A stretch of DNA of 64,000 bases from an uncultured bacterium (lineage in GTDB: Bacteria > Babelota > Babeliae > Babelales > Vermiphilaceae), in contig OY970212.1 of assembly GCA_963713925.1 (NCBI GenBank), positions 896,001 to 960,000 on the forward strand, in the 5' to 3' direction. The notes beneath the pieces are model-generated. The model did not search any database. It was given only the letters and a program-made list of their open reading frames with translations, and had not been told where the DNA came from. Both the position numbers and the translations under genes were made by a program. This document shows, in pieces, positions 51,461-64,000 of this stretch; positions within the stretch are counted from its first letter, which is position 1; each line of letters starts with the position of its first letter.

Positions 51461-51652
51461 TTATCGTTTTTTTGATGGCGCTTTTGGAACTTTTGCTCCG
51501 GATTTCCGTGCTTCCGAGAGACCAATTGCTATTGCTTGCTTTCTGCTCGTTACTTTTTTACCACTTTTACCGGACTTTAATGTTCCTTCTTTCATCTCAT
51601 GCATTGCGCGTTTCACTTTCGCTTGTGATTTTTTTCCATATTTTCTTGCCAT
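51461..51652 (-). CDS. Small basic protein (DUF6496-like)
   Basis: KVKRAMHEMKEGTLKSG...SRKQAIAIGLSEAR; AGGAGG RBS. Confidence 0.85.
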   Translation of the reverse strand: MARKYGKKSQAKVKRAMHEMKEGTLKSGKSGKKVTSRKQAIAIGLSEARKSGAKVPKAPSKKR

Positions 51653-51756: not shown

Positions 51757-51951
51757 TTATTCCATATCCTCTTCACGTCGTGAACCAGCTTCTCGCTTTT
51801 CACCACGGTTTGATTGAGCTTGTTTAGACTCATTACGCTCATGCTTCATCGATTTTTCTTCACGTTCAGCATGATTAAATTGTCCATGCTTTGAAGCTTC
51901 TTTTTGTTCTTTTTGGTTGTTGTTCCAACCGTGTTTTTTTTCGTTAGCCAT
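51757..51951 (-). CDS. Small hydrophilic (hydrophilin-like) protein
   Basis: AAGGAGG RBS; 64 aa almost devoid of hydrophobic residues. Confidence 0.8.
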   Translation of the reverse strand: MANEKKHGWNNNQKEQKEASKHGQFNHAEREEKSMKHERNESKQAQSNRGEKREAGSRREEDME

Positions 51952-52138: not shown

Positions 52139-52315
52139 TTATTTGCAATTTTTGTCGCCGCATTTGCCGCAATCACTGCATTTACAGTCTTTGCCGCAGC
52201 AGTCACAGTCTTTCGCACAAGACTTGCCATGCTTTTCATGCTTCATTGACTTATCATGGTGCGACGCACTCTTTTCTGAGTGAGGGTGTTGACCATATTT
52301 TTTTTCCTGAGCCAT
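52139..52315 (-). CDS. 58-aa His/Cys-rich metallothionein-like protein (absent from the ORF track)
   Basis: Hand translation MAQEKKYGQHPHSEKSASHHDKSMKHEKHGKSCAKDCDCCGKDCKCSDCGKCGDKNCK; AAGGAG RBS; downstream hairpin at 52080-52124. Confidence 0.8.
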   Translation of the reverse strand: MAQEKKYGQHPHSEKSASHHDKSMKHEKHGKSCAKDCDCCGKDCKCSDCGKCGDKNCK

Positions 52316-55535: not shown

Positions 55536-56693
55536 ATGAAAAGTATGAATGTAACGATATCTCTGTCGTTTCTTATCTTTAACACAATAGTTTTCTCACT
55601 ATGTGCTCTTGATATCCCAAAACTGAGGGATGCTGTTATTATCAAACCGATCGTCGATGCAAGCATAAGCATGCCGATTCCTATTAATGATCCGGCATCG
55701 CCACAGAACGAAAAAATCAGAAGAGCTCATCAGTTTCTTTTCAATCAAAGAGTGAGTGTGATCGGTCAGGATCAAGGCTGCCTTGTTGTGCAAGTAACAG
55801 ATGATAATGCCATATATGGGACAAGACAAGAAGGTTTACACAACACATTTTGGATCAAACGGAGTGATATCAAAATGCTTAACGAAATAGCTAAAGACAT
55901 TCGAAAGACCATACCTAAGTCAATCTATGGCAAGGGGTCGACAATTGTGCTGACATACCCATGGAAAGGCTTGTCGACTGGCACTCGATTGCGATACTGT
56001 CCCGAATATACAACAGACCAAAGTTATCTTGTTGCATACCCCGACCATCAAAAAAATTCGATATCATATGACTATGTTTCTCATCAAGACGCGATTGTAG
56101 AAACCCCCAAAACCTCCCTTGAATCTCGCGCTCTCTTTGTACGTCTTATCAATGGATTGATGGATAGATTATATGAGTCTGGTGACAAAGTGATCCCTTA
56201 TGTATGGGGTGGAAGCAGTTTTATCAGGGCACACGCCCCCAATGATTATTATCTGGCAGAAGATGGGTCTGCTTGGCATAGAGCTGGAAATCAGATGCCA
56301 TATACCGGTTACGATTGCTCCGAATTTGTGATGCGTATGGCACAAATGGTAGGAATCAATTTCCCATGGAAAATAACTACCACAATGAAAGATGCTCTTT
56401 CTCCCCTCGCTCCCGAGGATCAACTCCAAGAAGGCGACCTGATTTGGACGCACGGGCATATTATGCTTGTAAGCAATCTTGAGCGTAATGAAGTTATAGA
56501 ATCTCGTGGTTACAGCTCCGGATACGGATGCGTACATCGAATTCGTCTGTGCGAATGCCTTGACGGTGTTGAAACATTTAATGAGCTTTGCAAGCGATAT
56601 GTAGCACAAGAGCCGATTCGCTACAAAAATAAAGCTGGTTTCCTCGCTGATAAATCCCAACCCTTTCAATTGTTAAAACTTCCTTGCGACTAA
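55536..56693 (+). CDS. NlpC/P60 family peptidase
   Basis: PYVWGG, GYDCSEF, GDLIW, GHIML; N-terminal hydrophobic segment. Confidence 0.85.
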   Translation: MKSMNVTISLSFLIFNTIVFSLCALDIPKLRDAVIIKPIVDASISMPIPINDPASPQNEKIRRAHQFLFNQRVSVIGQDQGCLVVQVTDDNAIYGTRQEGLHNTFWIKRSDIKMLNEIAKDIRKTIPKSIYGKGSTIVLTYPWKGLSTGTRLRYCPEYTTDQSYLVAYPDHQKNSISYDYVSHQDAIVETPKTSLESRALFVRLINGLMDRLYESGDKVIPYVWGGSSFIRAHAPNDYYLAEDGSAWHRAGNQMPYTGYDCSEFVMRMAQMVGINFPWKITTTMKDALSPLAPEDQLQEGDLIWTHGHIMLVSNLERNEVIESRGYSSGYGCVHRIRLCECLDGVETFNELCKRYVAQEPIRYKNKAGFLADKSQPFQLLKLPCD

Positions 56694-56755: not shown

Positions 56756-57418
56756 TCAGCGAGATCTAGTGACGCCCTTGCGCTGGCACAAATCAAAGAT
56801 AGGGCATTTTGAGCAAAAGGGAGAAATGGGAACACATATGTTTTGCCCCCACATAACAAGCAAACGTGTGTATTGAATCCAATACTTTTTTGGCAACAGC
56901 TCCCGCAGTGCCTTTTCCGTTTCTTCAGGAGCTTTGGTTGAGACTAAGCCAAGCCGGTTAGAAATCCGATGAACATGAGTATCGACAACCATTGCAGGTA
57001 TGCCAAAGCCTTCGGCAAGGACCAAATTAGCGGTTTTGCGCCCTACCCCGGGCAATGTCAGAAGTTCTTCCATAGCATTGGGGACTTGAGATGAATAGTT
57101 TGAGATGAGAATGGCTGAAATTTGATGAATGGCGCGCGATTTGTTACGATAAAAACCCACCGGATAGATGAGTTTTTGAATCTGTTCCAAGGAAAGCGCA
57201 AGCATTTGAGAAGGTGTCTTTGCATGCTCAAAGAGCCTGATTGAAGCAGGCAACGAGACAGTATCTCTCGTTCTGAGGCTCAAAATACACGAAATAAGCA
57301 CTAAATAAGGGTCCCGCCCAAACTGATCGACTATTGAAATCGATGCAGGTGGCATCATGCCCTTGGTTGCTTTTTCGAGCGTTTTAATGATTAGTTCAAT
57401 ACGCCCTTCTGAAACCAT
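56756..57418 (-). CDS. nth: Endonuclease III
   Basis: LPGVGRKTAN HhH, VDTHVHR, C-x6-C-x2-C-x5-C. Confidence 0.95.
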   Translation of the reverse strand: MVSEGRIELIIKTLEKATKGMMPPASISIVDQFGRDPYLVLISCILSLRTRDTVSLPASIRLFEHAKTPSQMLALSLEQIQKLIYPVGFYRNKSRAIHQISAILISNYSSQVPNAMEELLTLPGVGRKTANLVLAEGFGIPAMVVDTHVHRISNRLGLVSTKAPEETEKALRELLPKKYWIQYTRLLVMWGQNICVPISPFCSKCPIFDLCQRKGVTRSR

Positions 57419-57426
57419 CTCGATAA

Positions 57427-57537
57427 TTAACGGAATGGAGGAAACTCTTCAGCAAACACGATTGCCGCAATAACAAATAGGGCAAGTTTAACGTAATCAG
57501 AGTTTACAAAAGCTATAATATTCTTTAGTTTATTCAT
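57427..57537 (-). CDS. 36-aa hydrophobic peptide ending FPPFR, divergent from regulator 1
   Basis: MNKLKNIIAFVNSDYVKLALFVIAAIVFAEEFPPFR; AGGAG RBS; own promoter; positional twin at 60317..60394. Confidence 0.7.
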   Translation of the reverse strand: MNKLKNIIAFVNSDYVKLALFVIAAIVFAEEFPPFR

Positions 57538-57568
57538 AAGTGGACTCCTGATAAAACAATCTGACCCA

Positions 57569-57597
57569 AGTATAACCACTTGGCAACCTAAGATCAA
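57569..57597 (-). promoter_or_regulatory. Sigma70-like promoter for peptide 1
   Basis: TTGATC (57592-97)-N17-TATACT (57569-74); overlaps the palindrome CCAAGT-N6-ACTTGG. Confidence 0.7.
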
Positions 57598-57598
57598 T

Positions 57599-60304
57599 AT
57601 GATTGATAACTTTTTAACATTATTCGAACAAGCCTTTGGCAATAATTATTCCCTTTTGGTATTTTTAACGATCTCCTTCTTGGTAAAGGGATATCTTTTT
57701 ATTTATCTCACAATAAAAGGGATTATCAATTCTTCTAAAATTTATCGTCCGGTCCCCCTGCTCTTGCTTGTTCTTTTAAGCGGAATTATTCAAGATTCGG
57801 CCTGGATCGCTAGGCTCATTGGCCGTATTTTCTTCGCATCCAGTCAACCATCTTTGTATGTTGCGGGATGGGTTATCTTTTCCTGGGCCTTTCCTACCAT
57901 TCAATATCAAGCGGTGGCACTTTTTCTTGAATCGCTTGTAAACCAACAAAGACATTTTTCCGGGAGGAATATTCTTACCTCACTAATAAGTGTCGGATTC
58001 AGCATCTTTTTTGTTGCTGCCGGCATACTCAATTTACTTGATATTCGCAGTTTGGATATGCACATAGTGCAAGAATTCTGCAGTTTATATTGCATTTTAT
58101 TTTTAATGCCTTTGAGTATAATAAACGTATTTTTGAAAATGAAAAAAAGCACGGTTCCTGAGATTCTCAGACAGCAATTATTGATCATTCTCAAGTTTTT
58201 TATCTACCCGCAACTTTTTTGTGATTTTATTCAGTTATATCCATTTAAAATTGTATCCAACAGCACTCTTGCAAATAGTTATGGCATGGTTGGTCTCTCG
58301 ACTATCTTACTTGCATGCGCTATGTACTATTGCACCCGGCGAATCATTGCTCTCAGATTCTTAAATATTAAAGAGCACGTTGAAGCTGCCGATCGTTTTA
58401 ACTTCGTTAACAGCTTTAAAGATGTGCTTGAACAGTTTAGCTCGGTAACTAATGTGAAAGAGTTGGCTTATATCACGCAGACCTTCTTTAAAGAAAATTT
58501 TAATATTCCTCTCTCAAAAATACAGGTTCACATCAGGAATGATGGCAAGAAAGAAGGTTCTCTTTCAAGTAGGCCTGAGCTGAGCACCATTGAGGTCGTC
58601 GCTGAAACATTTGTAACTACCCATTATCAAAATATCGCTGCTAAAACTGAAGAAGTTCTTATTTTTGATGAAATTGCGTTTAACAGCTTTTATGGGACAA
58701 AAGATCAACGCCAAGAGCTACACTTTTTAGAAACTATTAATGCTGATATCTTTTTGCCTATCTTCAAAAATGATTCTGTGATTGCCTATATCATAGTTGA
58801 GCGGTATGCGCGACCCAAAGAATTTTACAGCACCGGCGAGCGGGATGAGATGGTTATATTTGCTCACTATTTGGGCAACATGATCCACCTACTCAAAAGC
58901 AGGCAGCTGGAATCGATTATTCAGCAGGAAAAAGAACTCAAAGAAGAGATTTACAATAAACATCAAGAAATCAATCAATATAGAGAAAGCATTCGATCCT
59001 TTTTGCGTAACAAGCCAAAAGAGATTGGCATCTTATTTTATAAGAATCGAAAGTTTATCTTCGGCAATCAGACAGCCCAAGAACTTGTGAAGGTGAATCC
59101 CAACACGCAAGAGGGTCACCCATTTGTGAAAGCAATCAAGCAAATAGCCACCATGGTTGAAGAATACAAGTCACCGCAAAATACGATTTATGCCGAATCT
59201 CCTGATCAAAAATATGTCATATCAGGTGTGCCTAATATTGAAAAAAACAATGTGATCATCACAATCTATCCGCCAGACATTTCTGATATCATAAAGCGAC
59301 AATTCAGTAGCTTGAAAGATCCGAGTAAATGGGATTATTTACTCTATCTTGAAACGACTCAATCGGGACAACTCATCAATCAAATGATCCCGGGAAATAG
59401 TGAGACTATTCTTCATTTCAAAATTGATCTACTCAAGCTCGCGCTGAATAAAAAGGCTATTTTAATCGATATGCCGCAAGAAGACACTCTTTCGATCGTT
59501 GAGATTCTCCATCATATATCATTGCGCGAGACACTCCATGTGATGCATATCAAAAGTCCATCTTCACATGCGGAACATGCTATCAAGCTCTTTGGAATCA
59601 ACCCCATTTTTTCTATGAATAAAGATACACAGTCACTGCTTGAAAAGCTCCATAACGTCGGCACGCTTTTTATTGAAAACATACACTTGCTTGAACTTGA
59701 AACTCAGGAATATTTGGCTGAATATTTACAATACGGCATGTTTCGCGTGTACAAAAGTGATCAACGAAAAGAAGCGAATGTACGCATTATCTGCTCAAGC
59801 AATCAGGATTTAACCTATCTCAGTCAACAAGGAAAATTTTCAGCTAACCTTCTTGCCGAATTGAAAAAAACACAGATTAAATTCCCCTCATTGCACGAAC
59901 TTCCACAAGAAGAACTTTCAGAACTCACTGAAGGATTCTCTCATGGCATGCTTCAAAACCAAGCCTATTCGAGTCTCTTGGAATTGACCGACCGAGAAAA
60001 AAATAGACTCATTGAATCGCGTCCGGTGAGTTTTAAGGAGCTTAAGCAACGAATTCAACAACTTATGCATAATAAATCAAAAAAGAATGAAATTGAGCAT
60101 GAAACTCATTTCGACCCAGCATTTGTTGATATTTCAAATCCTGAGCTTCTGCAAGCTGTCAGACTTGGCAAACACGCACTGCGCGACAAACGGGTCATGA
60201 CTATGTTGTGGAACAAATTTAAGAATCAGAATAAGATTGCGTCATTCTTGGGCGTTAACAGATCGTCAGTAAACCGACGCTGCAAAGAATTCAATCTTGA
60301 ATGA
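57599..60304 (+). CDS. Membrane one-component regulator: about 7 TM, GAF-like, degenerate sigma54-activator AAA+, Fis-type HTH
   Basis: Seven hydrophobic segments; DIFLPI...YSTGE GAF-like; GTLFIENIH, ANVRIICSSNQDL; KIASFLGVNRSSVNRR. Confidence 0.85.
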   Translation: MIDNFLTLFEQAFGNNYSLLVFLTISFLVKGYLFIYLTIKGIINSSKIYRPVPLLLLVLLSGIIQDSAWIARLIGRIFFASSQPSLYVAGWVIFSWAFPTIQYQAVALFLESLVNQQRHFSGRNILTSLISVGFSIFFVAAGILNLLDIRSLDMHIVQEFCSLYCILFLMPLSIINVFLKMKKSTVPEILRQQLLIILKFFIYPQLFCDFIQLYPFKIVSNSTLANSYGMVGLSTILLACAMYYCTRRIIALRFLNIKEHVEAADRFNFVNSFKDVLEQFSSVTNVKELAYITQTFFKENFNIPLSKIQVHIRNDGKKEGSLSSRPELSTIEVVAETFVTTHYQNIAAKTEEVLIFDEIAFNSFYGTKDQRQELHFLETINADIFLPIFKNDSVIAYIIVERYARPKEFYSTGERDEMVIFAHYLGNMIHLLKSRQLESIIQQEKELKEEIYNKHQEINQYRESIRSFLRNKPKEIGILFYKNRKFIFGNQTAQELVKVNPNTQEGHPFVKAIKQIATMVEEYKSPQNTIYAESPDQKYVISGVPNIEKNNVIITIYPPDISDIIKRQFSSLKDPSKWDYLLYLETTQSGQLINQMIPGNSETILHFKIDLLKLALNKKAILIDMPQEDTLSIVEILHHISLRETLHVMHIKSPSSHAEHAIKLFGINPIFSMNKDTQSLLEKLHNVGTLFIENIHLLELETQEYLAEYLQYGMFRVYKSDQRKEANVRIICSSNQDLTYLSQQGKFSANLLAELKKTQIKFPSLHELPQEELSELTEGFSHGMLQNQAYSSLLELTDREKNRLIESRPVSFKELKQRIQQLMHNKSKKNEIEHETHFDPAFVDISNPELLQAVRLGKHALRDKRVMTMLWNKFKNQNKIASFLGVNRSSVNRRCKEFNLE

Positions 60305-60316
60305 TGCGAATCAAAT

Positions 60317-60394
60317 TTAATCGTTCGGTGGAAATCTCATCATTACCGCGATGAGAAAAACTACTGAAAAAAATTGAAATAGTAACGTACTCAT
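60317..60394 (-). CDS. 25-aa hydrophobic peptide ending FPPND, divergent from regulator 2
   Basis: MSTLLFQFFSVVFLIAVMMRFPPND; GAGGA RBS; same promoter hexamers as peptide 1. Confidence 0.65.
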   Translation of the reverse strand: MSTLLFQFFSVVFLIAVMMRFPPND

Positions 60395-60455
60395 ATATCT
60401 TCCTCGAAAGTTATTCGTCCTTTCCCTCCATGTTGCAATCTCTTTATGATGTTGT

Positions 60456-60484
60456 AGTATAGTGACATTATAAAGGATGATCAA
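60456..60484 (-). promoter_or_regulatory. Sigma70-like promoter for peptide 2
   Basis: TTGATC (60479-84)-N17-TATACT (60456-61). Confidence 0.7.
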
Positions 60485-63221
60485 TAATATGCTGAACATT
60501 TTTCAATCTGTATGTGAATTAATACACAGCAAGCATTTCTTTTTTATAACCCTCATCTTTGTTCTATGCGCGAAATGTTTTCTTTTTATACAACTCATCA
60601 ATAGAACAAAACATTCTACAACTCAGCGTTTATCTATTTTGCTATTACTCGGAGTCATTATAGGATCTATAGCCGGCGATGTCAGCTGGTTTATTAAATT
60701 GTTGAGAGATTTATGGATTACAACCATCCCATATACAGTTAATATTTTTGGGTTAAGAATAGCGTGGGCATTTCTTATCATTCAATATCAGTCGCTCGCC
60801 CTCTTTATAGAAACGGTTCCTCAAAGAATTTTTCGATTAAAGCGCATGCATTTTGTATCGTTAGCTGTTAGCTGCGCGATCGCTTGTTTTTTTGTGTACA
60901 TTGCTTTTTTTGAACCCACCCTTCTTACACAAGTTGAGCGGCACCTTGCATTTAACGAAACAAATCCACAATTAATTCCTTGGGAAGTGCTTGTCATGAG
61001 ATATGTGAGTCTCTATCTCATTCCTATTTTTATGCTTTCCAGCCTCTTTTATACATTCAAAGCAATTTCTTCGCGACGATTGCCCACCCTACTTAAACGG
61101 CATATGTCAATTCTTGTACAATATTTTCTAACTCCATTCTTTATTGCGGAATCTATCGTTGCTATTCATATGAATGTCAAATCGCTTAACATATATTCAA
61201 GTGGAATCCTAAGTATATCGAATATTCTTTTGACCTGTTCTCTCTATTATAGCATTCGCACAATTTTAAATCTTCGATTCCTCAATCTTGACGCTCATAT
61301 TCCTGCCCGTCAACGCGTCAATTTTATAGAGCATTTCAAAGAAGCTCTTGAGACTCTGAGCAAAGTAGGAAATATCGAAGAGTTAGTTCAAATTACTCAA
61401 ACATTCTTTAAAGAAGCCTTTGATATTCACAATAAAAAAGTCACTCTCCACATCAAAAATCTTTCGCCGGAATCTACATCAGCAACTCCAGATAAAGTGA
61501 ATCCGCTTGAGCAAAGCATTGAACAATTTTTGCTCACATTGACCGAAAAAGAATCCGAGTGTCTGAAAAAATTAAAAATCTTAATTAACGATGAACTGAG
61601 CTTTACCGAATTTTATAACCCCAGCCCGATACGACACAAGTTCATACAATTTTTGCAGGATAATCAGTTGGATATCTTCTTACCCATTTATAGAAACAAC
61701 ACAATTATTGCACACATTAGCGTTGGGTTGAACGCACGGCTGCAACATAACTATACGCTCGCTGACCATGATGAAATGCTTGTTTATAGCACCTACTTGG
61801 CAAGCGTTATCAATTTGGTTAGAAATCGTAATCTCAAGCAGCTCATTCAAAAAAAACATATATTGCAAGATGATGCATTTCTCAAACATCAGGAAATTAA
61901 CTTATACAAAGAAAGTATAGAAGCTTTTATAAAAACAAACGCAACCAAGCACATCGGTATTTGTTTTTATAAAAATAATAAGATTACTATTGCGCATATC
62001 CTTTCCCACGGAATTATTAACCAACAGATTATTCAACAAGATCGTCATCCGCTCACCAAAGCAATCAAGGAAATTGGCGATCAAGTAGAACAGTTCAAGA
62101 CTCCTGCTACGCAGTTAATTAATTATGATGGTATACGCATTGTGTTAACCGCCGTCTCAAACCTTGAACGACAAAATGTGATCGTCACGTTATATCAACC
62201 GGAAATTTCGGATGTATTAAAACATAAAATAAATGTATTGAAAGACCCTGAACGCTGGAACTTCTTGCTCTACCTTGAAACGACAAAATTGGGCGCCAAA
62301 ATCAACCAGCTCATTCCAAGCGATAGTGAATTGATGCTCAATCTCAAGATTGAGTTGTTGCAAAATGCTATTAATCGAAAAATCGTACTTCTCAATGCCC
62401 CCGAAGAAGATATTCAATCGCTTGCACAGGTGATGTGTCAAAGCAGCGCTCAAAATATGCTCCATATATTGTCACTCAAATATCAGGCTCAAGATGCAAC
62501 CTATTATAAAAAGATGTTTGGAGATCACTCAGTTTTCGGTTCACATTCAGAACCGGCTCTGCTTGAGAAAGCTAATAATAACGCGACAATTTTGATAGAA
62601 AATATTCATTTCCTCGATTTGCAAACGCAAGCAATGCTTGCGCACTACAACAAAACGGGTGCCTATAGCCCATACCACAGCAGTGCACTCACCGAATCAC
62701 ACGTTCGTATTATATGCACCACCAACCAAAGCATCTCCAATCTTCTGCTTGAGAATAAGTGTGACTATGCATTGTATGAAATACTCAAAGATTCGAGCAT
62801 GAGCTTTCCTTCTCTACTGACCCTCCCGCATGAAGAATTAGAAGGATTGGCGCATGGATACTTACATCAGTTATTGCAACAAGATGAATTTAAAATTACT
62901 ATACCACCAACAAATAAAGAGATCTCGAACATTGTCAGAACAAAACCGACTAGTTTGACTGAATTAAAACGCAAAGTAAAAAATCTTCTCACGGCTCAAA
63001 AAGAATCGCTTCCCGATTCTGATTTTGAACATGCACACTCAACTGCATCTCAAGAACATGAGATCATCCATGCAACCAGACTTGGAAAAAAAGCCTTACA
63101 AGACCCGGATATTATGCGCGTTTTATGGCAAAAGTTTAAAAATCAGAATAAAATTGCTACCTTTTTAGGAGTAAATAGATCATCAGTTAATAGACGCTGT
63201 AAGGAATATCAGCTCCAGTAG
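60477..63221 (+). CDS. Paralogous membrane one-component regulator (7TM-GAF-degenerate AAA+-HTH)
   Basis: Collinear with 57599..60304 (IQYQ..ALF, ITQTFFKE, LLYLETT, IENIH, near-identical HTH); start may be 60489. Confidence 0.85.
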   Translation: MINNMLNIFQSVCELIHSKHFFFITLIFVLCAKCFLFIQLINRTKHSTTQRLSILLLLGVIIGSIAGDVSWFIKLLRDLWITTIPYTVNIFGLRIAWAFLIIQYQSLALFIETVPQRIFRLKRMHFVSLAVSCAIACFFVYIAFFEPTLLTQVERHLAFNETNPQLIPWEVLVMRYVSLYLIPIFMLSSLFYTFKAISSRRLPTLLKRHMSILVQYFLTPFFIAESIVAIHMNVKSLNIYSSGILSISNILLTCSLYYSIRTILNLRFLNLDAHIPARQRVNFIEHFKEALETLSKVGNIEELVQITQTFFKEAFDIHNKKVTLHIKNLSPESTSATPDKVNPLEQSIEQFLLTLTEKESECLKKLKILINDELSFTEFYNPSPIRHKFIQFLQDNQLDIFLPIYRNNTIIAHISVGLNARLQHNYTLADHDEMLVYSTYLASVINLVRNRNLKQLIQKKHILQDDAFLKHQEINLYKESIEAFIKTNATKHIGICFYKNNKITIAHILSHGIINQQIIQQDRHPLTKAIKEIGDQVEQFKTPATQLINYDGIRIVLTAVSNLERQNVIVTLYQPEISDVLKHKINVLKDPERWNFLLYLETTKLGAKINQLIPSDSELMLNLKIELLQNAINRKIVLLNAPEEDIQSLAQVMCQSSAQNMLHILSLKYQAQDATYYKKMFGDHSVFGSHSEPALLEKANNNATILIENIHFLDLQTQAMLAHYNKTGAYSPYHSSALTESHVRIICTTNQSISNLLLENKCDYALYEILKDSSMSFPSLLTLPHEELEGLAHGYLHQLLQQDEFKITIPPTNKEISNIVRTKPTSLTELKRKVKNLLTAQKESLPDSDFEHAHSTASQEHEIIHATRLGKKALQDPDIMRVLWQKFKNQNKIATFLGVNRSSVNRRCKEYQLQ

Positions 63222-63227
63222 GAAAAA

Positions 63228-64000
63228 ATGGAATCGGTGGAACTCAACATCTCTCAAGAAATTTTTAAAGAATTATCACATGAATTCATACTCCACCTGC
63301 AAGTTGAGCGACGCGTTTCAGAGCATACCATTCGCGCATACACCGGAGATCTGACAGATATTGTTCATTTTTGGACTTCACTATCAGAAGATGATCAAAA
63401 ACATCTTCCCTTCAAACAAATACTCGATCGATACATGATGAGTATTTTTTATAAAAAAATCAGTAAAAGTTCTATTGCTCGTAAATTCTCTTGTCTACGC
63501 TCATTTGAAAAATTTCTGCTCAAGCGGGGAATTCGATTAGCGCTCAAAATAAAACGACCACGCATAGAAAAAAAATTACCGGTCTATTTAAGCATTGATG
63601 AAATCACTTATCTCCTTGACGGCATTTCTGACAAAGAGCTGTTGTGTCAATATCCTTTGCGCGATAAAGCAATTTTTGAACTGCTCTATGCAACCGGAAT
63701 ACGATGTTCAGAGCTCGTTTCAATTTGCATGCGCGATCTTAATATGCACGAAAAAACAATTCGCATATTTGGCAAAGGAGCAAAAGAGCGCATTGTGTTG
63801 TTCGGCCAGCGAGCAAAAGAACGCCTGGAACTTTATTTGCAAAAGGAACGAGCTTTTGTTAAAAACACGGATGAGCGTCTGTTTTTGAACAATCGCCATG
63901 AACCGCTCACGCAACGGAGCATTCAAAGAATTATCGAACATTTCAGGATGTTTCTAAAAACTCCCCGAGAGATTACGCCTCACAAGCTACGACATTCATT
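63228..64000 (+). CDS. xerC: Tyrosine recombinase XerC/XerD family, 3'-truncated
   Basis: Hand translation: SEHTIRAY..DL, RDKAIFELLYATGIRCSEL, GKGAKERIV, ITPHKLRHS. Confidence 0.88.
   Translation, partial: MESVELNISQEIFKELSHEFILHLQVERRVSEHTIRAYTGDLTDIVHFWTSLSEDDQKHLPFKQILDRYMMSIFYKKISKSSIARKFSCLRSFEKFLLKRGIRLALKIKRPRIEKKLPVYLSIDEITYLLDGISDKELLCQYPLRDKAIFELLYATGIRCSELVSICMRDLNMHEKTIRIFGKGAKERIVLFGQRAKERLELYLQKERAFVKNTDERLFLNNRHEPLTQRSIQRIIEHFRMFLKTPREITPHKLRHS

Follow-up and report, generated by a model that had tools for sequence, protein, structure and literature searches.

The window analyzed here is a stretch of 64,000 nucleotides, positions 896001–960000 of a single-contig 1.32-Mb genome (95.75% complete) whose named relatives are Dependentiae/Babelota. 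Dependentiae are host-dependent parasites of protists. Two regulator genes, R1 and R2, lie there in tandem, flanked by an endonuclease III gene and a tyrosine recombinase gene, and a very short open reading frame (micro-ORF) with a Pro-Pro (PP) motif near its end is encoded divergently upstream of each. Comparative data strongly support a real, phylum-wide cassette in which micro-ORF and regulator would form a cognate peptide–receptor pair.

Peptide gene 1 (57427..57537, minus strand) encodes 36 amino acids with a basic N-terminus, a hydrophobic core and an acidic tail, EEFPPFR, of a class we call D/E-x-PP. A putative signal-peptidase-like site, with cleavage after VFA, precedes the acidic tail. 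The Shine-Dalgarno sequence AGGAG is at 57545..57549 (minus), and a sigma70-type promoter facing the gene, TTGATC-N17-TATACT, was found by pattern match at 57569..57597 (minus). Its −10 element overlaps a TATAAC on the plus strand, and its −35 element abuts the R1 start codon. The protein collection lists the exact peptide 1 protein, as a gene call that has no name. In R1 (57599..60304, plus strand, 901 amino acids), a seven-transmembrane (7TM) sensor is followed by GAF and PAS-like domains with a coil between them, and then by AAA+ and helix-turn-helix (HTH) domains. The sensor domain (57644..58360, plus) was assigned from a structure model, a structure search and loop charges; it has a short second outer loop, an N-out/C-in orientation and a G protein-coupled receptor (GPCR)-like fold.

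The second cassette repeats this layout. Peptide gene 2 (60317..60394, minus, 25 amino acids) has a hydrophobic core and ends in MRFPPND, with the tail RFPPND of an R-x-PP class; no same-strand gene follows it. Its Shine-Dalgarno sequence GAGGA is at 60401..60405 (minus) and a facing promoter that matches the same TTGATC-N17-TATACT pattern is at 60456..60484 (minus). R2 (60477..63221, plus, 914 amino acids) has an R1-like architecture with a 7TM domain of a long-second-outer-loop class. R2 may start at its second ATG, 60489 (910 amino acids), since that codon fits the family spacing from the promoter element.

R1 and R2 are 36% identical and are the only two regulator copies in the genome. The first-pass annotation, made from the letters of the window, had reported both micro-ORFs at these positions with these tails, a ribosome-binding site (RBS) and a hydrophobic core in each, and two paralogous regulators of about 900 amino acids; all of this was reproduced. 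The best 11-residue Kyte-Doolittle means of the cores are 3.27 (peptide 1) and 2.93 (peptide 2). An FPPxx C-terminus occurs in 5 of the 39,177 stop-to-stop segments of at least 20 amino acids in the genome, and two of the five are the micro-ORFs.

Conservation of the peptide genes

Peptide genes were scored with a fixed test: a divergent ORF of 18–70 amino acids, starting 15–260 nt upstream, led by an RBS word and carrying PP within its last 16 residues. The test was defined after the first relatives had been viewed and then kept unchanged. In this genome, 7 of 773 genes of at least 200 amino acids are positive, R1 and R2 included (controls 5/771). Among distinct regulator copies at loci L001–L099, 82 of 99 are positive, with one locus that lacks a usable start left uncounted. 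Eight of the 17 misses show an RBS-led ORF with a single-Pro variant (e.g. GTPGGR, SYPGGS, GWPTGC), one, next to a truncated receptor, has a hydrophobic ORF that lacks the motif, and one is unclear.

For a held-out set we took the 30 best loci plus 40 further matches, the latter chosen among 150 listed of about 250 so as to span seven other families. Removing repeats and one locus short of upstream DNA left 49 copies, of which 44 pass the unchanged test. This brings the overall count to 126/148; related copies are not independent, and the positives span many family codes. The conserved divergent micro-ORF upstream of regulator homologues, on which the first-pass hypothesis depended, is therefore present in most copies.

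The peptides are 18–70 amino acids long (median 32) and lie 21–245 nt from the receptor start. In the alignment PP is the sole invariant feature, and all four Pro codons are used at both PP positions (82 peptides). The ratio of non-synonymous to synonymous changes (dN/dS), a check suggested in the first-pass annotation, is 0.21 when pooled over five non-overlapping pairs of at least 50% identity (43 synonymous changes at 83 sites, 47 non-synonymous at 292), a figure that is biased downward by choosing pairs on protein identity and in which synonymous sites are near saturation. Six of nine peptides looked up are in the protein collection and none has a functional name; in databases the peptides are unnamed, hypothetical or uncalled.

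A sigma70-type promoter directed at the peptide gene, TTG[AC]NN-N17-TATA[AC]T, is present in 52 of 82 cases, where 0.27 are expected from shuffles. This strict pattern was chosen after the data had been seen; it recurs in 24 of 44 held-out cases and has 23 matches genome-wide, two of them at this locus. The overlap of the −10 element with a TATAAT-like word on the regulator strand suggests a bidirectional promoter. A generic promoter scan of the region gave 20 sites against 20.0 expected, which is no support by itself, and Rfam had no match in the region.

The micro-ORFs code for conserved proteins and have a promoter and RBS of their own. Could they instead be chance frames in an AT-rich divergent promoter region? 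Some divergent ORF of 18–70 codons is found at 744 of 773 long genes, and the strict promoter pattern was picked post hoc. Chance frames would not, however, be expected to pass the RBS-plus-PP test in 126/148 copies against 5/771 controls, the held-out set included, to vary synonymously at Pro codons with a dN/dS well under 1 or to be lost together with the receptor. We give this explanation almost no credence.

Two loci stand apart. At L071:3995-4423 (plus) the receptor frame ends after 143 amino acids and the upstream hydrophobic ORF, unlike those of close relatives, has no PP tail; joint decay or an assembly error would account for this. The genome under study also holds a third intergenic, RBS-led hydrophobic ORF of 20 amino acids with GPP near its end (G000:C1:1126477-1126539, plus). 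It is divergent to an unrelated 231-amino-acid gene and was set aside as a cassette member, being probably a chance match.

Co-inheritance with the receptor

A profile of the 7TM domain matches 160 of 214 Dependentiae genomes, and none of the 27 in one family. Four to six matches were found in each of G172, G186, G204, G052, G060, G118 and G126, possibly expanded receptor repertoires or fragments. As a receptor-less sample we used 31 genomes without a 7TM match; a full-length profile found one true homologue there, cut by a contig end. A frame of 430–485 amino acids with a weak AAA match, probably an ordinary NtrC-type regulator, occurs in 9 of 30 receptor-less genomes (G128:C16, G145:C11, G155:C6, G124:C64, G123:C126, G127:C1, G038:C21, G035:C1 and G150:C1).

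The left flanking gene of our cassettes is nth (endonuclease III, HhH-GPD; 56756..57418, minus; named from its Pfam match), and the stop of peptide gene 1 is 8 nt from it. The nth gene lies outside the cassette and is retained in receptor-less genomes, where it is mostly directly divergent to the xerC-like recombinase gene. At the 27 evaluable receptor-less nth loci, one PP ORF was found, and it is non-hydrophobic. The same nth-anchored scan of receptor-bearing loci was positive in 83 of 91. We conclude that receptor and peptide are gained and lost as one cassette. Among 82 peptides, 48 are upstream of nth, at a gap of 1–243 nt, and 34 are elsewhere. A terminator-like hairpin follows 16 of 45 peptides not linked to nth (0.3 expected) and 7 of 81 that are. 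The peptide moves with the receptor, not with nth.

These counts bear on a reading of the micro-ORF as a ribosome-stalling leader, with Pro-Pro acting as in SecM, ApdP or CutF, that regulates the downstream nth. The signal-like N-terminus and the C-terminal PP would suit such a role, as would the 48 nth-linked peptides and the 8-nt gap in this window. The residue most common after PP is G (21/126), and PPG is a stalling triplet. Against a leader, 34 peptides are not upstream of nth, the gap varies widely for those that are, and receptor-less loci show no such leader before nth. Arrest peptides that monitor Sec or YidC are upstream ORFs of secA, secDF or yidC with a RAPP-like motif and require a spacer of more than 30 residues after the signal (PMC10987492). 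The peptides described here differ in that the downstream gene is nth or none, the spacer from core to PP is at most 12 residues in 109 of 126, and RAPP, RGPP, QAPP and RAGP occur in 0/126. A stalling leader is accordingly a very improbable explanation.

Peptide motif and processing

The first-pass annotation proposed FPP as the shared motif. Its PP part is conserved at the protein level; its F is not, being present in 18 of 126 peptides (F, W or Y in 43/126), and the family motif is x-x-Pro-Pro, or xPP for short. One to three residues follow PP in 69 of 82 peptides. A K or R within the first 10 residues is found in 114 of 126, along with a hydrophobic core. The membrane-spanning part is not conserved (22% mean column identity), and the tail holds the only invariant residues. 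Among class-A (D/E-x-PP) peptides, 28 of 43 have a small residue just ahead of their acidic tail, where the background is 25%; the sequences there resemble a signal-peptidase site. Cys near PP is seen in only 21/126, and no GG ahead of the tail is conserved in the 82 aligned peptides.

Thirteen of 126 precursors have more than one PP motif, some of them as near-identical repeats after the signal peptide. The clearest are L130, L120 and L135, with a signal region followed by three near-identical repeats; repeat units include three DDFPPMG-like or three NMPPY-like copies. A signal region plus two or three PP repeats is also found in L084, L090, L087 and L006. These seven are the best candidates for defining the mature peptide. 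Multi-copy hormone precursors, by analogy, carry repeated motifs behind a signal peptide. Three PP repeats behind a signal region favour a short, excised ligand.

The genome encodes signal peptidase I as well as a protease of the M50 (RseP) type. The C39 exporter peptidase (PF03412) was not found, nor was AgrB (PF04647), for which the control matched in 1 of 14 genomes, below the cut-off, so that its sensitivity is unproven. Some second-copy peptides (L051:6742-6816, L089:4818-4895, L032:4797-4880 and L046:1743-1817) are amphipathic and basic, with a Kyte-Doolittle maximum of 0.4–0.9, and keep W/F-PP; they may take another route or be inhibitors.

Small membrane peptides can modulate a sensor of their own cell, as MgrB does with PhoQ. 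In the same way, the peptides described here might be uncleaved small membrane proteins, or cell-bound cleavage products, that bind the 7TM domain of their own cell within the membrane, either as tethered agonists or to inhibit it by feedback. Rather than signalling between cells, the cassette would then work as a cell-autonomous switch, or it would monitor secretion or membrane proteolysis. This is the main rival to a released peptide, because most peptides consist of one helix to which the tail is attached, and a clear cleavage site is lacking in the R-x-PP class. With a median length of 32 residues, PP often follows the single hydrophobic helix directly, the dedicated exporters and maturation enzymes sought were not found in the genome, and both the co-loss and the class tracking described below fit such a modulator equally well. 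A released product is better suited to those precursors in which a signal region is followed by a polar spacer and as many as three PP repeats, and to the enrichment of a small residue ahead of the acidic tail; a modulator working within the membrane is also hard to square with a spanning part that is not conserved while the tail is. On balance we consider the membrane modulator unlikely, though it deserves to be taken seriously.

Receptor architecture

R1 comprises the 7TM domain (residues 16–254), GAF (about 269–433), the coil, a PAS-like domain (477–557), AAA+ (594–830) and a Fis-type HTH (864–897). The GAF and PAS calls draw on model secondary structure, Atlas neighbours, one weak Pfam GAF match in a relative and database names. 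An AlphaFold2 model of R1 built with 83 sequences has a predicted local distance difference test score (pLDDT) of 87.3 and a predicted template modelling score of 0.58; its seven N-terminal helices are mostly above pLDDT 85. In a structure search of 48,161 chains with the full-length model, residues 11–258 align to class A GPCRs (Z 15–16.4, 210–250 residues, root-mean-square deviation about 4–5 Å, 5–11% identity), among them CXCR4, PAR1 with its tethered ligand, NMUR2 and NPFFR2. Loop charges give an N-out, C-in topology by the positive-inside rule. The conserved 7TM residues are K30, D66, W69, R93, W96, Y164 and S234; from this topology, the polar and aromatic ones would be placed within or close to the outer half, the part in which GPCRs bind their ligands.

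Residues 594–830 align to bacterial enhancer-binding proteins (bEBPs), and Foldseek against PDB gave bEBP AAA domains only, among the matches listed. Walker A (GxxGxGK) and GAFTGA are both missing in 83/83 sequences, and the sigma54 DNA-binding domain (PF04552) was not found in the genome; the AAA+ part is therefore best seen as a scaffold. Judged by its motifs, the cytoplasmic part is a bEBP descendant with a dead ATPase. The database name ‘sigma54-interacting regulator’ for the receptor is contradicted by this motif test. R1 and R2 have no kinase domain, no receiver domain was found in the genome, and Pfam scans of 27 regulators had no match to a TPR family. The first-pass proposal that the system is neither of the RRNPP nor of the histidine-kinase type agrees with these results.

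By sequence the 7TM family is closed: searching 1.84 billion sequences gave 402 representatives at E ≤ 0.001 and 374 at 1e-10. The PF16927 (HisKA_7TM) hidden Markov model does not match the receptor. The nearest language-model neighbours in the Atlas are HisKA_7TM+GAF clusters (0.91–0.93), with PF16927 in 21–65% of members, and a distant kinship of the receptor 7TM with HisKA_7TM is possible. The 7TM profile had no match among PDB sequences. Phage records gave one weak AAA match and the viral fold library mostly AAA proteins. A profile search for longer proteins, which is insensitive, returned two.

Two receptor and two peptide classes

First regulator copies mostly have peptides with D/E-x-PP tails, and second copies mostly R/K-[FYWM]-PP. 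An R or K at position −2 goes with 13 of 21 long-second-outer-loop receptors and 2 of 103 others. The first-pass annotation also noted a strongly diverged 7TM domain beside a nearly identical HTH. The HTH stretch it pointed to is indeed the same at 24 of 25 positions, and R1 and R2 are 24% identical in the 7TM domain against 67% in the HTH. As a special feature of this pair the claim does not hold, since the family means are 28% and 69% and other parts of R2 have drifted as well: its GAF, PAS-like and AAA parts are down to about 37% identity to R1 (family mean 41–49%), with the HTH intact. In its cytoplasmic part R2 forms a long branch and, unlike most second copies, has not been homogenised with its neighbour.

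Sensor and output parts have different histories in 16 tandem pairs. The second-copy 7TM domain is 36% identical to second copies of other genomes and 28% to its own first copy, and is closer to its own first copy in 0/16. For the GAF, PAS-like, AAA and HTH parts, the own first copy is the closer one in 13, 13, 15 and 15 pairs, by small margins. Peptide labels change 4 times on the 7TM tree and 8 times on the cytoplasmic tree, against about 10–11 when shuffled (42 labelled rows, FastTree). These results suggest that the sensor keeps its class with the peptide, and that the output part has apparently been homogenised between neighbours. Cognate pairing, as first proposed, thus has comparative support from two sides: the peptide is lost with the receptor, and receptor class tracks peptide class.

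The same data weigh on the possibility that the peptide is the regulator's output, a small secreted product directed at the host or at other bacteria, with the 7TM domain sensing a host molecule such as a lipid. A divergent regulator and target with a strong promoter is a layout that would fit, many of the matched GPCRs bind lipids or small molecules, and the motif tolerates change, since 8 of the 17 misses show a single-Pro variant. Each duplicated receptor nevertheless keeps its own peptide, where one target copy would suffice because the HTHs are near-identical, and peptide class goes with the 7TM domain and not with the part that binds DNA. We therefore think it improbable that the peptide is an output.

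Other features of the window

To the right of R2 is a xerC-like tyrosine recombinase gene (63228..64000, plus; named from its Pfam match) that runs past the window end. A 385-amino-acid protein at 55536-56693 (plus), convergent with nth, has an N-terminal hydrophobic segment, a GYDCS motif, which we take to be NlpC/P60 peptidase-like, and no NCBIfam match. Three consecutive small ORFs at 51461-51652, 51757-51951 and 52139-52315 (all minus) encode a Lys-rich protein of 63 amino acids, a charged one of 64 and a His/Cys-rich one of 58 with CxxC-like repeats, metallothionein-like by appearance.

Proposed function

With moderate confidence, we propose that an exported and processed peptide is read by its cognate membrane-bound transcription factor in a manner like quorum sensing. 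The cassette would consist of a peptide precursor and a cognate membrane-bound one-component regulator, divergently transcribed from one compact promoter region. The precursor would be inserted or exported post-translationally, and a housekeeping protease (in the D/E-x-PP class signal peptidase I, in the R-x-PP class perhaps RseP) would cut it to yield a Pro-Pro peptide of 5–8 residues on the periplasmic side. Binding in the outer 7TM pocket would be relayed through the GAF domain, the coil and the PAS-like domain as far as the dead AAA+ scaffold and so alter HTH binding at sigma70 promoters. The two paralogues would provide two inputs to one output. The likeliest use would be counting siblings inside a confined host cell and timing a life-cycle switch.

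Several observations count against this proposal. Seven of the 99 regulator copies have no candidate peptide at all. The distance from hydrophobic core to PP, at most 12 residues in most peptides, fits an uncleaved membrane peptide too; peptide 2 and the R-x-PP class have no obvious signal-peptidase site, and several members of that class are barely hydrophobic (Kyte-Doolittle maximum 0.4–0.9). Since neither AgrB nor a C39 exporter was found, processing must be borrowed. With an outer membrane, a periplasmic peptide may signal to its own cell only. On the receptor side, helical bundles attain Z 13–14 by chance in the structure tool's own calibration, a shared fold demonstrates no function, and R1 has Ile where 73 of 83 relatives keep an Arg in the third transmembrane helix. 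Essentially a single clade underlies the class correlation, which so amounts to about one evolutionary event. As to peptide/7TM covariation, a check suggested in the first-pass annotation, covarying columns lean to the outer half (16/20 and 15/20 against 51%; position +2, 11/20), a trend confounded by kinship, and charge complementarity between peptide tail and outer loops is non-significant (rho −0.08, p 0.40, n = 124). Finally, no operator was found with a position matrix over 82 promoters or a dyad scan of 126 intergenic regions, which gave promoter elements and weak dyads only.

Comparison with known systems

Published criteria for RRNPP systems are a propeptide of 10–100 amino acids adjoining the receptor gene, secretion by Sec or PptAB and a cytoplasmic TPR receptor of 250–500 amino acids (PMC10075063). 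The peptides described here fall within the size and adjacency limits, at 18–70 amino acids and 21–245 nt from the receptor start. As in Rgg/SHP and other RRNPP systems, a small propeptide gene with a basic N-terminus and a hydrophobic region adjoins a receptor that is also the transcription factor, with one-component logic. The receptor, in contrast, is a membrane-bound 7TM protein of about 900 amino acids with no TPR match, the peptide is proposed to be read at the outer face without re-import, and the hosts are Dependentiae, not Firmicutes.

In Agr and Com systems, a polytopic membrane receptor reads a small processed peptide outside the cell, and receptor and peptide form specificity groups. 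Reading at the membrane would be shared with the cassette; it differs in having no histidine kinase or receiver, no AgrB or C39 found, no conserved Cys or GG leader, and an output fused to the receptor. Atypical bEBPs (TyrR, NtrX, VpsR, FleQ, DhaR) likewise combine a bEBP-type AAA+ fold and a Fis-type HTH without sigma54. Walker A and GAFTGA are absent from all 83 sequences of the receptor family, however, and the 7TM-GAF membrane anchor and the peptide partner gene set it apart. Walker A in 0/83, GAFTGA in 0/83 and no PF04552 hit also place it outside the sigma54-dependent bEBPs. Regulators of the ToxR/CadC type too join sensor and DNA-binding domain in one membrane protein, but they are single-pass, their winged helix being N-terminal and their sensor domain periplasmic.

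GPCR-like 7TM sensors of bacteria and archaea have been published as kinases and diguanylate cyclases (PMC13581589). The receptor resembles HisKA_7TM (PF16927) sensors in its seven-helix N-out bundle followed by GAF and differs in its DNA-binding output; the accessible part of that paper describes no cognate peptide gene for the kinases and cyclases. Eukaryotic peptide-hormone class A GPCRs share the fold and the multi-copy precursors. At 5–11% identity, with no G protein and a fused transcription factor, homology to them is not claimed. A literature search, with subscription journals mostly outside its reach, found no description of the cassette. In one Dependentiae isolate, quorum-sensing mechanisms were reported absent (PMC6561590).

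Significance

The novelty lies in the parts: receptor and peptide fall outside every peptide-signalling family checked, and function is inferred. A fuller picture, which we consider evenly balanced between right and wrong, would be one of hormone-like Pro-Pro peptides cut from precursors that are secreted and in some cases multi-copy, a transcription factor that doubles as their GPCR-fold receptor, and two long-separated channels converging on one DNA-binding output. Together they would make up a class of peptide signalling distinct from the RRNPP and histidine-kinase types and would serve an obligately intracellular phylum as its main switch for density or development. If true, this would be a third architecture of bacterial peptide signalling, with a bacterial peptide receptor of GPCR fold. 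More than 100 natural ligand–receptor pairs could then be read from genomes, allowing a direct test of what prokaryotic GPCR-like 7TM domains bind. For Dependentiae, where this genome shows no response regulator, the cassette would provide a first handle on life-cycle control.

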